Assembly (NCBI RefSeq): GCF_055900595.2
Contig: NZ_CM148325.1
Reading direction: 5' to 3' (one strand)
DNA: 64,000 bases
Numbering within the stretch: the first letter of the stretch is position 1; each line of letters starts with the position of its first letter. Under the pieces are notes generated by a model. That model did not search any database, was not told the DNA's origin, and saw only the letters and a list, made by a program, of their open reading frames with translations. Shown piece by piece: positions 22,616 through 23,295 of the stretch. The position numbers and the translations under genes are program-made.

Positions 22616-23229
22616 GAATCCAGTGAAGCTATGAATGTCGGTTCCTATACACTGGGGGGCATGGGTACGTCAGCTCAGGCGGGAACGTCAGGATACCACG
22701 TCTTCTGCATCACCACTCACATCAGAGTAGCAACGTATTCATGAACTGGAAAAGCAGGTTCGTCGCCTGGAGGAACAAAAAACGATATTAAAAAGCTACA
22801 GTGCTCTTGATATCCTTCCCACTGAACGGTTTACGATAGTTACCAGACTGAGCGGCGACACACGATTGTCAGTCTTTGCGCTGCTCTGGATGCTCATTGC
22901 AGCAGTTCCGGCACTGGCAGAATCGGCTCAATACGATTGATCCGGCGCGAATCAAATTGTATAGCGAAACAGTCCGGGTCTGGAACCAGAGTCGGGGTTC
23001 CGCAGGTGCGCGTGCTCTGGCAGATATGCTGATTCAAAATGGTATCCCGATGAGCAGTTGTCGTGCCAGGCGGCTGATGAAGCATCTGAACCTGAGAAGT
23101 GCTCAGCCCGGAAAATATCAGTACAAAAATGCCCGCCAGGAGCATACCAGCCTGCCGAGTCTGCTTGAGTGTCGGTTTTCTGTGCTGGAGGCCGAGCAGG
23201 TATGGATTCTTAAATAAACCTCGAGTCTG
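22616..23229 (+). mobile_element. IS911 (IS3 family) partial copy A: orfA 3' part and orfB 5' part
   Basis: Nucleotide-level reverse-complement match to 56932..57545; encodes ...AMNVG... and orfB N-terminus ending ...SVLEAEQVW; truncated at both ends. Confidence 0.7.
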
Positions 23230-23295
23230 TCTGGAATATAGAATCGGTAGCTAACGATGAGAAACCCAACAATCCCATCGGGTGTGACGGTGGAG
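23230..23295. other. Short fragment homologous to the 5' region of the group II intron at 23778..26047
   Basis: TCTGGAATATAGAATCGGTAGCTAACGATGAGAAACCCAACAATCCCATCGGGTGTGACGGTGGAG is ~90% identical to intron positions ~50-115 (reverse complement of ~25935-26000); lies between the IS911 fragment and the IS3 terminus. Confidence 0.4.

Follow-up and report, generated by a model that had tools for sequence, protein, structure and literature searches.

The 64,000-nt window analyzed here carries two identical, inverted copies of a 604-nt sequence, repeat R, in which the remnant of an IS3-family insertion sequence (IS) is fused to a stump of a group II intron. Repeat R is very probably ordinary, inert mobile-element debris that still serves as a recombination substrate. 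In avian and extraintestinal pathogenic E. coli, the window forms a chromosomal island; it is 99.9–100% identical to many complete genomes and contains iucABCD-iutA, sitABCD, sodC, iha and amiC along with dozens of IS pseudogenes. The locus supports the published picture in which the group II intron E.c.I4 inserts time and again at one conserved motif of IS3-family transposase genes and later becomes inactive. It is a compact example of nested mobile-element history, with no new mechanism.

A repeat search of the whole window places the arms of R at 22626-23229 and 56932-57535, each 604 nt long, inverted, 100% complementary and separated by 33,702 nt. A preliminary description of this DNA had drawn the arms at 22616-23229 and 56932-57545; the inverted repeat is real, but those limits take in 10 extra nt at the outer end, of which only 4 agree between the arms. 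It had also proposed that both fragments stop at one position in orfB, after ...EAEQVW, and have the next 24 bp in common. Indeed, the sequence ...GAGCAGGTATGG|ATTCTTAAATAAACCTCGAGTCTG, encoding ...EAEQVW and then the common 24 bp, is present in both copies, and they are identical through the junction. The parts of the two copies, together with the scrap that follows copy B, are as follows.

22626..23229, plus strand: R copy A, consisting of the interior of the host element (ISx, see below) at 22626-23205 and an intron stump at 23206-23229.
22626-23205, plus strand: ISx part of copy A, the 3′ part of orfA and the 5′ part of orfB, with frameshifts and stops, ending ...EAEQVW.
23206-23229, plus strand: intron stump of copy A, E.c.I4 nt 29-52.
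56932..57535, minus strand: R copy B, 100% identical to copy A.
56920..56931, minus strand: intron scrap of copy B, 12 nt, AATCGGTAACTA, about E.c.I4 nt 65-76, after a 12-nt deletion relative to copy A.

After the 24 bp, copy A continues for a further 66 bp (23230-23295), as far as position 23296, where an IS3-like element ends. These bases had been described as ~90% similar to the intron in IS3, and the match of 23209-23295 to the intron of the neighboring IS3-like element is 90.8%. Copy B had been credited with ~16 bp of intron similarity; a short scrap is present, but it amounts to 12 nt (56931-56920) after a 12-nt gap, 11/12 identical to copy A, and beyond it the sequence is unlike copy A.

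What is the 24 bp that both copies carry beyond orfB? It is intron, not IS sequence. E.c.I4 and S.f.I1 are class A group II introns that lack an endonuclease domain and home into IS3-family transposase genes (PMC3522654; PMC3552965). The 24 bp, ATTCTTAAATAAACCTCGAGTCTG, matches E.c.I4 nt 29-52 (21/24 against the K-12 copy) and lies within a single unbroken 100-nt alignment of 23196-23295 to that copy (90%, E = 1e-33). At the junction point, K-12 IS911A and full-length IS911 read ...CCAAATCAGGTGTGG-TGCGGTGATGTGACCTATA| (EPNQVW-CGDVTYI); that is, IS911 has TGCGGTGATGTGACCTATA where R has ATTCTTAAATAAACC.... The nearest homologues of the R orfB fragment that extend beyond the motif read ...PEPDRVW-CGDITYLW.... 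The form common to orfB of IS911 and of the ISx homologues is ...EP(N/D)(Q/R)VW-CGD(V/I)TY..., whereas R ends at ...EAEQVW and its translation after VW is ILK and then a stop. Could the 24 bp and the bases that follow be plain IS911 or ISx sequence, with no foreign junction at all? R is only ~50–60% like IS911, so reference IS911 alone cannot tell how ISx would read here. The unbroken alignment to the intron, the continuation of both IS911 and ISx-like proteins as CGD(I/V)TY, and the ILK-stop in R nevertheless make this explanation extremely improbable. The preliminary description had named ordinary IS911 sequence in the 24 bp as the finding that would overturn it; alignment to IS911 and E.c.I4 identifies the 24 bp as intron, and its proposal of one foreign junction common to both copies stands.

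The reading frame of R breaks off 6–7 codons upstream of the E.c.I4 site GD(I/V)TY|, and the intron begins ~28 nt late. The last 28 nt before the junction also align weakly to intron nt 1-28 (~61%, one gap). DNA identity alone does not decide between an orfB and an intron reading of those 28 nt; the protein alignment does so. An intron start at TGTGCTGGAGG, suggested by MAFFT, which would make EAEQVW intron-encoded, was rejected: identity there is ~61%, compared with 82–91% elsewhere in the intron relic, and the stretch matches the conserved orfB motif of IS911 and ISx-like proteins.

Which element makes up the rest of R? The preliminary description took it for a fragment of IS911, and this identification was not borne out, with nucleotide identity of ~50–60% beyond the first 176 nt of copy B. 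R thus falls short of the ~90% or more expected of an IS911 isoform, a level reached only by 57696-57520 (92.7%) and 37691-37833 (97.2%). It does belong to the IS3 family: R is collinear with IS911, and PGAP calls it an “IS3 family transposase” pseudogene. Homologues of its orfB carry the HTH_21 domain PF13276, with or without the rve domain PF00665. From these comparisons, the host is an undescribed, degenerate IS3-family relative of IS911, here called ISx, rather than an IS911 isoform. The pieces that bear on this assignment are the flanks of the two R copies and one isolated fragment.

22527..22625, plus strand: aL, left flank of copy A; native degenerate ISx left end, common to ColV plasmids.
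57536..57695, minus strand: bL, left flank of copy B; true IS911 left end, with the inverted repeat and the orfA start.
56792..56919, minus strand: bR, right flank of copy B; ISx 3′ end, ...YYNSVRPH...ESENRY..., with right inverted repeat ...GAGCACTGCA.
37691..37833, plus strand: isolated IS911 orfB fragment, 97.2% identical to full-length IS911 (query 940-1082 = IS911 nt ~932-1074).

The aL flank is collinear with IS911 nt ~16-165, minus a ~48-nt deletion that takes in the orfA start, and its local alignment score against IS911 is 28 (shuffles, 15.6 ± 2.1, maximum 23). Judged by eye from the alignment, bR is roughly 60% like the IS911 3′ end. The IS911 match at bL runs from 57696 to 57520 and so reaches 16 nt into R. 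Copy B is an IS911::ISx chimera, with its first 176 nt true IS911, joined at the conserved AAGCTATGAATGTCGG. Taken together, aL, R and bR form one coherent degenerate element, ISx. The order of parts is the same as in IS911 (IS3 family, 1248–1250 bp), namely left inverted repeat, orfA, orfB and right inverted repeat; the difference lies in the low nucleotide identity of R to IS911, and the nearest partly intact protein homologues of R are 62–76% identical. These closest ISx-like transposase fragments, at 62–76% amino acid identity, include P0006 (179 aa, 63%), and none is full-length. An intact ISx was not found among 5.8 billion protein clusters, which yielded only fragments with at least 82% identity and the 62–76% relatives. 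A third IS911 orfB piece had been noted at 37690-37838; it is real at 37691-37833 and lies outside repeat R.

A protein from one E. coli contig, P0002, has ...EAEQVWI fused straight to SEHKEEKRCVRMPVMC, the sequence downstream of the ISx right end. This is a further deletion variant from the same junction, and it suggests a junction region that is prone to deletion.

How much of the intron is left? The preliminary description proposed that a second, now mostly deleted intron had sat in IS911 and had left a relic of ~66 bp. The intron itself is supported by four collinear sense-strand pieces, and the 66-bp piece is real; the host is ISx rather than IS911, and the relic resumes beyond the IS3-like element and extends to intron nt 759. 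In a BLAST search of the intron against the window, these four plus-strand pieces total 370 aligned nt at 85.7% identity to E.c.I4, and their orientation is that of the sense strand of orfB. The relic and the elements within it are as follows.

23206-23295, plus strand: relic piece 1, E.c.I4 nt 29-118, ~91%; the part at 23230..23295 lies outside R.
23296..26808, minus strand: IS3-like element, 78–86% identical to K-12 IS3, inserted in the relic.
23778..26047, minus strand: full-length E.c.I4, 2270 nt, GTGTG...CTAC, 98% identical to the K-12 CP4-6 fragment.
26809..26953, plus strand: relic piece 2, E.c.I4 nt 332-~470 (BLAST match 26809-26947 = nt 332-464, 82.6%).
26954..27936, plus strand: degenerate, IS481-like element with an integrase core domain; simple insertion into the relic, flanked by the 6-bp target duplication CAGGTG.
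27937..28090, plus strand: relic pieces 3 and 4, E.c.I4 nt 483-545 (~82%) and nt 666-759 (87%).

The BLAST matches for the last two pieces are 27943-27999 (nt 489-545, 82%) and 27997-28090 (nt 666-759, 87%). Because the relic resumes beyond the IS3-like element, that element sits inside the older relic. Thus, the nesting runs from ISx, outermost, through the old intron and the IS3-like element to the new E.c.I4. The IS3-like element has no target duplication; at 23296 it adjoins relic nt 118, and at 26808 nt 332. Two deletions interrupt the relic, one of nt 119-331 at the IS3-like element and one of nt 546-665 between pieces 3 and 4. The element at 26954-27936 has inverted repeats TGTACGATGCGGAGACAT... 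and is judged, from these ends and the target duplication, to be probably IS481-like. At 28090 (nt 759), the relic is cut off by an unrelated IS3-family orfB fragment at 28098-28236. This fragment was considered as the continuation of ISx orfB past the intron and rejected, as it belongs to another IS3-family element, resembling 44292-44443.

The relic lacks the 5′ splice site and everything past nt 759, domains V and VI included. Of its reverse transcriptase, only the first 29 codons are present, with a TAG stop (28003-28089), and PGAP annotates a “reverse transcriptase” pseudogene. Rfam finds no domain V in the relic; the only domain V/VI match in the window, at 23778-23864 on the minus strand (64 bits), belongs to the full-length E.c.I4 copy and ends exactly at the intron 3′ end. 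The relic is a dead intron fragment, not a functional group II member. The full-length copy is E.c.I4 by its length, ends, domain V and IS3-family target site, and its reverse-transcriptase gene has an internal stop, as published for SMS-3-5. It splits the IS3-like element after ...GACATCACGTACT. The E.c.I4 insertion site is GACCTATA|GTGTG in K-12 and CACGTACT|GTGTG in the IS3-like element of the window, both just after the CGD(V/I)TY motif.

How does the relic compare with known introns? The pieces of the relic follow the order of E.c.I4 nt 29-759 on the sense strand of an IS3-family orfB, and the relic begins near where a copy inserted at the homing site would; the full-length copy in the window occupies the same GD(I/V)TY| site in the IS3-like orfB. 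An undamaged version is found in the K-12 CP4-6 region, where an IS911-type element, IS911A, is cut at nt 764 by E.c.I4 and followed by E.c.I4-tr1 (eyeA and ykfC). The relic differs in its divergence: known class A copies (E.c.I4, S.f.I1), the sole basis on which the class was described, are ~98–99% alike, whereas the relic is 82–91% identical, and its overall 85.7% lies outside the ~10% divergence limit for the same name in the intron database. The default reading is neutral decay of an old insertion. Alternatively, the relic and ISx may be the sole surviving trace of a second class A intron lineage, ~15% diverged, which may have diverged while still active in another host, before fossilizing and spreading on ColV-type plasmids and islands; we regard this as rather unlikely. 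No close living relative of the relic was found in 72,556 plasmids, in which all full-coverage matches were ordinary E.c.I4 at ~83–84%. Among changed base pairs, 11 of 30 stayed canonical, with 0 double changes, no excess over permutations (P = 0.27), in a test that is weak because it uses a predicted structure, the minimum free energy fold of E.c.I4 nt 1-760. Conserved pairing would have pointed to an intron that diverged in a functional state.

Some of these pieces have been recorded before. In K-12, the fragment directly after IS911A is E.c.I4-tr1, of 1764 bp (PMC3522654; PMC3552965). In the SMS-3-5 island, E.c.I4-25 and E.c.I4-tr2 (132 bp, 84% identity) have been catalogued 762 nt apart; the catalogue dropped matches shorter than 100 bp, and no other piece of that island was entered (PMC3522654). 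The layout of the SMS-3-5 island is that of the window, with an equal 762-nt spacing, and the published 132-bp E.c.I4-tr2 corresponds to 26809-26940. The three shorter relic pieces appear to have escaped record. What is new relative to the catalogue is that the pieces are one relic, split by the IS3-like and IS481-like elements and attached to a repeated ISx remnant.

The K-12 small RNA EyeA (NC_000913.3, 272580-272654) lies wholly inside E.c.I4-tr1, at intron nt ~390-464, and its homologous regions in the window are 26809-26940 and about 25584-25658 (minus strand). EyeA may thus represent transcription of intron domain I and not a gene in its own right.

How did the junction arise? We have considerable confidence in the overall explanation, a history of debris formation that left a recombination substrate, and infer its order of events as follows. 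First, ISx, an IS911-like element now reduced to pseudogene remnants, would have received an E.c.I4-type class A intron on the sense strand of orfB, entering at the conserved ...W-C-G-D-(I/V)-T-Y| site, presumably by retrohoming. Second, ~19–20 nt of the 5′ exon and the first ~24–28 nt of the intron (~47 nt) would have been lost across an ATGG microhomology; the exon has GTATGG and the intron GCATGG, with ATGG in common, and the product reads ...GTATGG|ATTCTT.... Third, two right-hand states would have formed. In one, aR, the long relic would have acquired an IS481-like insertion, internal deletions and the IS3-like element that gained the modern E.c.I4; in the other, bR, the 24 + 12 nt scrap would have been joined to the ISx 3′ end. 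The left-hand states would be aL, the native ISx left end, and bL, the first 176 nt of true IS911. Neither an intact ISx nor an intact intron of the relic lineage was found (the best plasmid introns are ~84% identical), so the original exon-intron boundary is seen only indirectly.

The 5′ truncation may instead date from insertion itself, with an incomplete cDNA made during retrohoming and joined by microhomology to the upstream exon. Target-primed reverse transcription is known to give 5′-truncated products with microhomology joins, and such an origin would account for the 4-nt ATGG and for the missing intron nt 1-~28 and ~19 nt of exon. However, ordinary deletions are numerous at the locus (of 12, 120 and 213 nt, besides the P0002 variant), which makes post-insertional deletion at least as likely. 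Truncation at birth is therefore a minority possibility, unlikely but worth keeping in mind. It is also conceivable that the fragment never homed into ISx and that an unrelated rearrangement, an IS-mediated deletion or fusion, set it beside a truncated ISx. Illegitimate joins are common in this IS graveyard, and the canonical boundary is missing. Chance juxtaposition would nonetheless have to explain why the relic and orfB have the same orientation, why, in an element of 1.25 kb, the break falls no more than ~20 nt from the motif targeted by E.c.I4 (~1–2% by chance), and why the intron side begins within 30 nt of its own 5′ end; we consider it quite improbable. Insertion at the target motif followed by deletion is the reading preferred here.

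Is R still active as a recombination substrate? Four flank combinations of R, which is carried by roughly 250 genomes, were queried in 5,426 complete E. coli genomes.

aL-R-aR: 51 genomes of 5,426.
bL-R-bR: 64 genomes of 5,426.
aL-R-bR: 180 genomes of 5,426, the commonest combination.
bL-R-aR: 3 genomes of 5,426, namely EC6563, HCM-24C-3 and A3176.

The window has aL-R-aR and, inverted, bL-R-bR, while aL-R-bR is the only combination found on ColV plasmids. EC6563, HCM-24C-3 and A3176 each also have aL-R-bR, ~30 kb from bL-R-aR. In a BLAST comparison of EC6563 with the window, both outer flanks are reversed and the interior is collinear, at 99.9%, the layout of a clean reciprocal exchange within R. 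The earlier suggestion that the repeats are inversion substrates is thus supported by three complete genomes with the reciprocal junction pair and an inverted interior. Homologous recombination between the R copies, presumably RecA-dependent, inverts the 33.7 kb that separate them, with iha, amiC and numerous IS remnants. The three inverted genomes have in common a private deletion of 26811-29839 (~3 kb). It begins right where the IS3-like element ends and takes out what remains of the relic together with the IS481-like element, the PAPS reductase gene and the start of the IbrB-like gene, a pattern typical of deletions adjacent to an IS. As the deletion is private to these genomes and common to all three, they probably record one event and not recurrent flipping.

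Large inversions between inverted IS or rRNA copies have the same long identical arms and reciprocal junctions, with both flank combinations found in nature. The difference here is that the arms are non-transposing pseudogene fragments and that the recombinant is rare (3 genomes, one lineage). Natural inversion isomers, together with a segment that carries iha and other surface and iron-uptake genes, might suggest a programmed site-specific switch for the genes of the 34-kb segment. This is barely plausible, given that the arms are 604-bp pseudogene remnants and not short recombinase sites, that no invertase or recombinase gene is annotated at either arm, and that the alternative state, in 3 of 5,426 genomes, probably traces to the single event described above. 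Homologous recombination between debris copies is the reading retained.

The arrangement of the window may itself be recombinant, because aL-R-bR is coherent, the commonest combination and plasmid-borne. The preliminary description held that one junction was later duplicated in inverted orientation. The common junction is supported, but inverted duplication is only one possible history, since the hybrid aL-R-bR is the commonest form and the only one on ColV plasmids.

What are the implications of these rearrangements? First, in avian and extraintestinal pathogenic E. coli, R is a genuine hot spot of rearrangement for the iuc/sit/iha island, and four junction isomers and a three-copy variant of it exist. 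Second, R links this island to ColV plasmids. Third, R matters for assembly, for typing of the island and for inferring transfer from plasmid to chromosome. The three-copy variant is strain XH992 (NZ_CP019392.1; 7191-19056, 40078-41490), which has no intron relic and in which direct repeats of window 57535..56125 flank a sit-sodC module. Such an arrangement resembles the outcome of Campbell-type integration, by homologous recombination, of a ColV-like sit-sodC-ISx circle.

Other repeated elements are present in the window. Two IS10-type copies, at 4112-5440 and 54253-55581, are identical, 1329 nt long and inverted, each with a match to RNA-OUT. They were considered as a composite transposon, and this was rejected: the two copies are flanked by different 9-bp target duplications (TGCAGAGCG and TGTTAAGTG), which indicates two independent insertions. 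The first copy splits iucB, a gene of aerobactin synthesis, and the second is located within an SgcJ/EcaC-like gene. Strain DG341-1 lacks both insertions, and the iucB::IS10 junction, the one junction searched, was found in 0 of 5,426 complete genomes. Because the IS10 and R pairs interleave, successive inversions could scramble the island. One more inverted-repeat pair is formed by 28098-28236 and 44292-44443, the former being 80–90% identical, in inverted orientation, to this part of a degenerate IS3-family element at ~44062-45241. Finally, Rfam matches to STnc490 (18749-18870, 133.7 bits, just upstream of an IS200 tnpA fragment) and isrN (40363-40505, 138.2 bits) both lie within IS-rich DNA.
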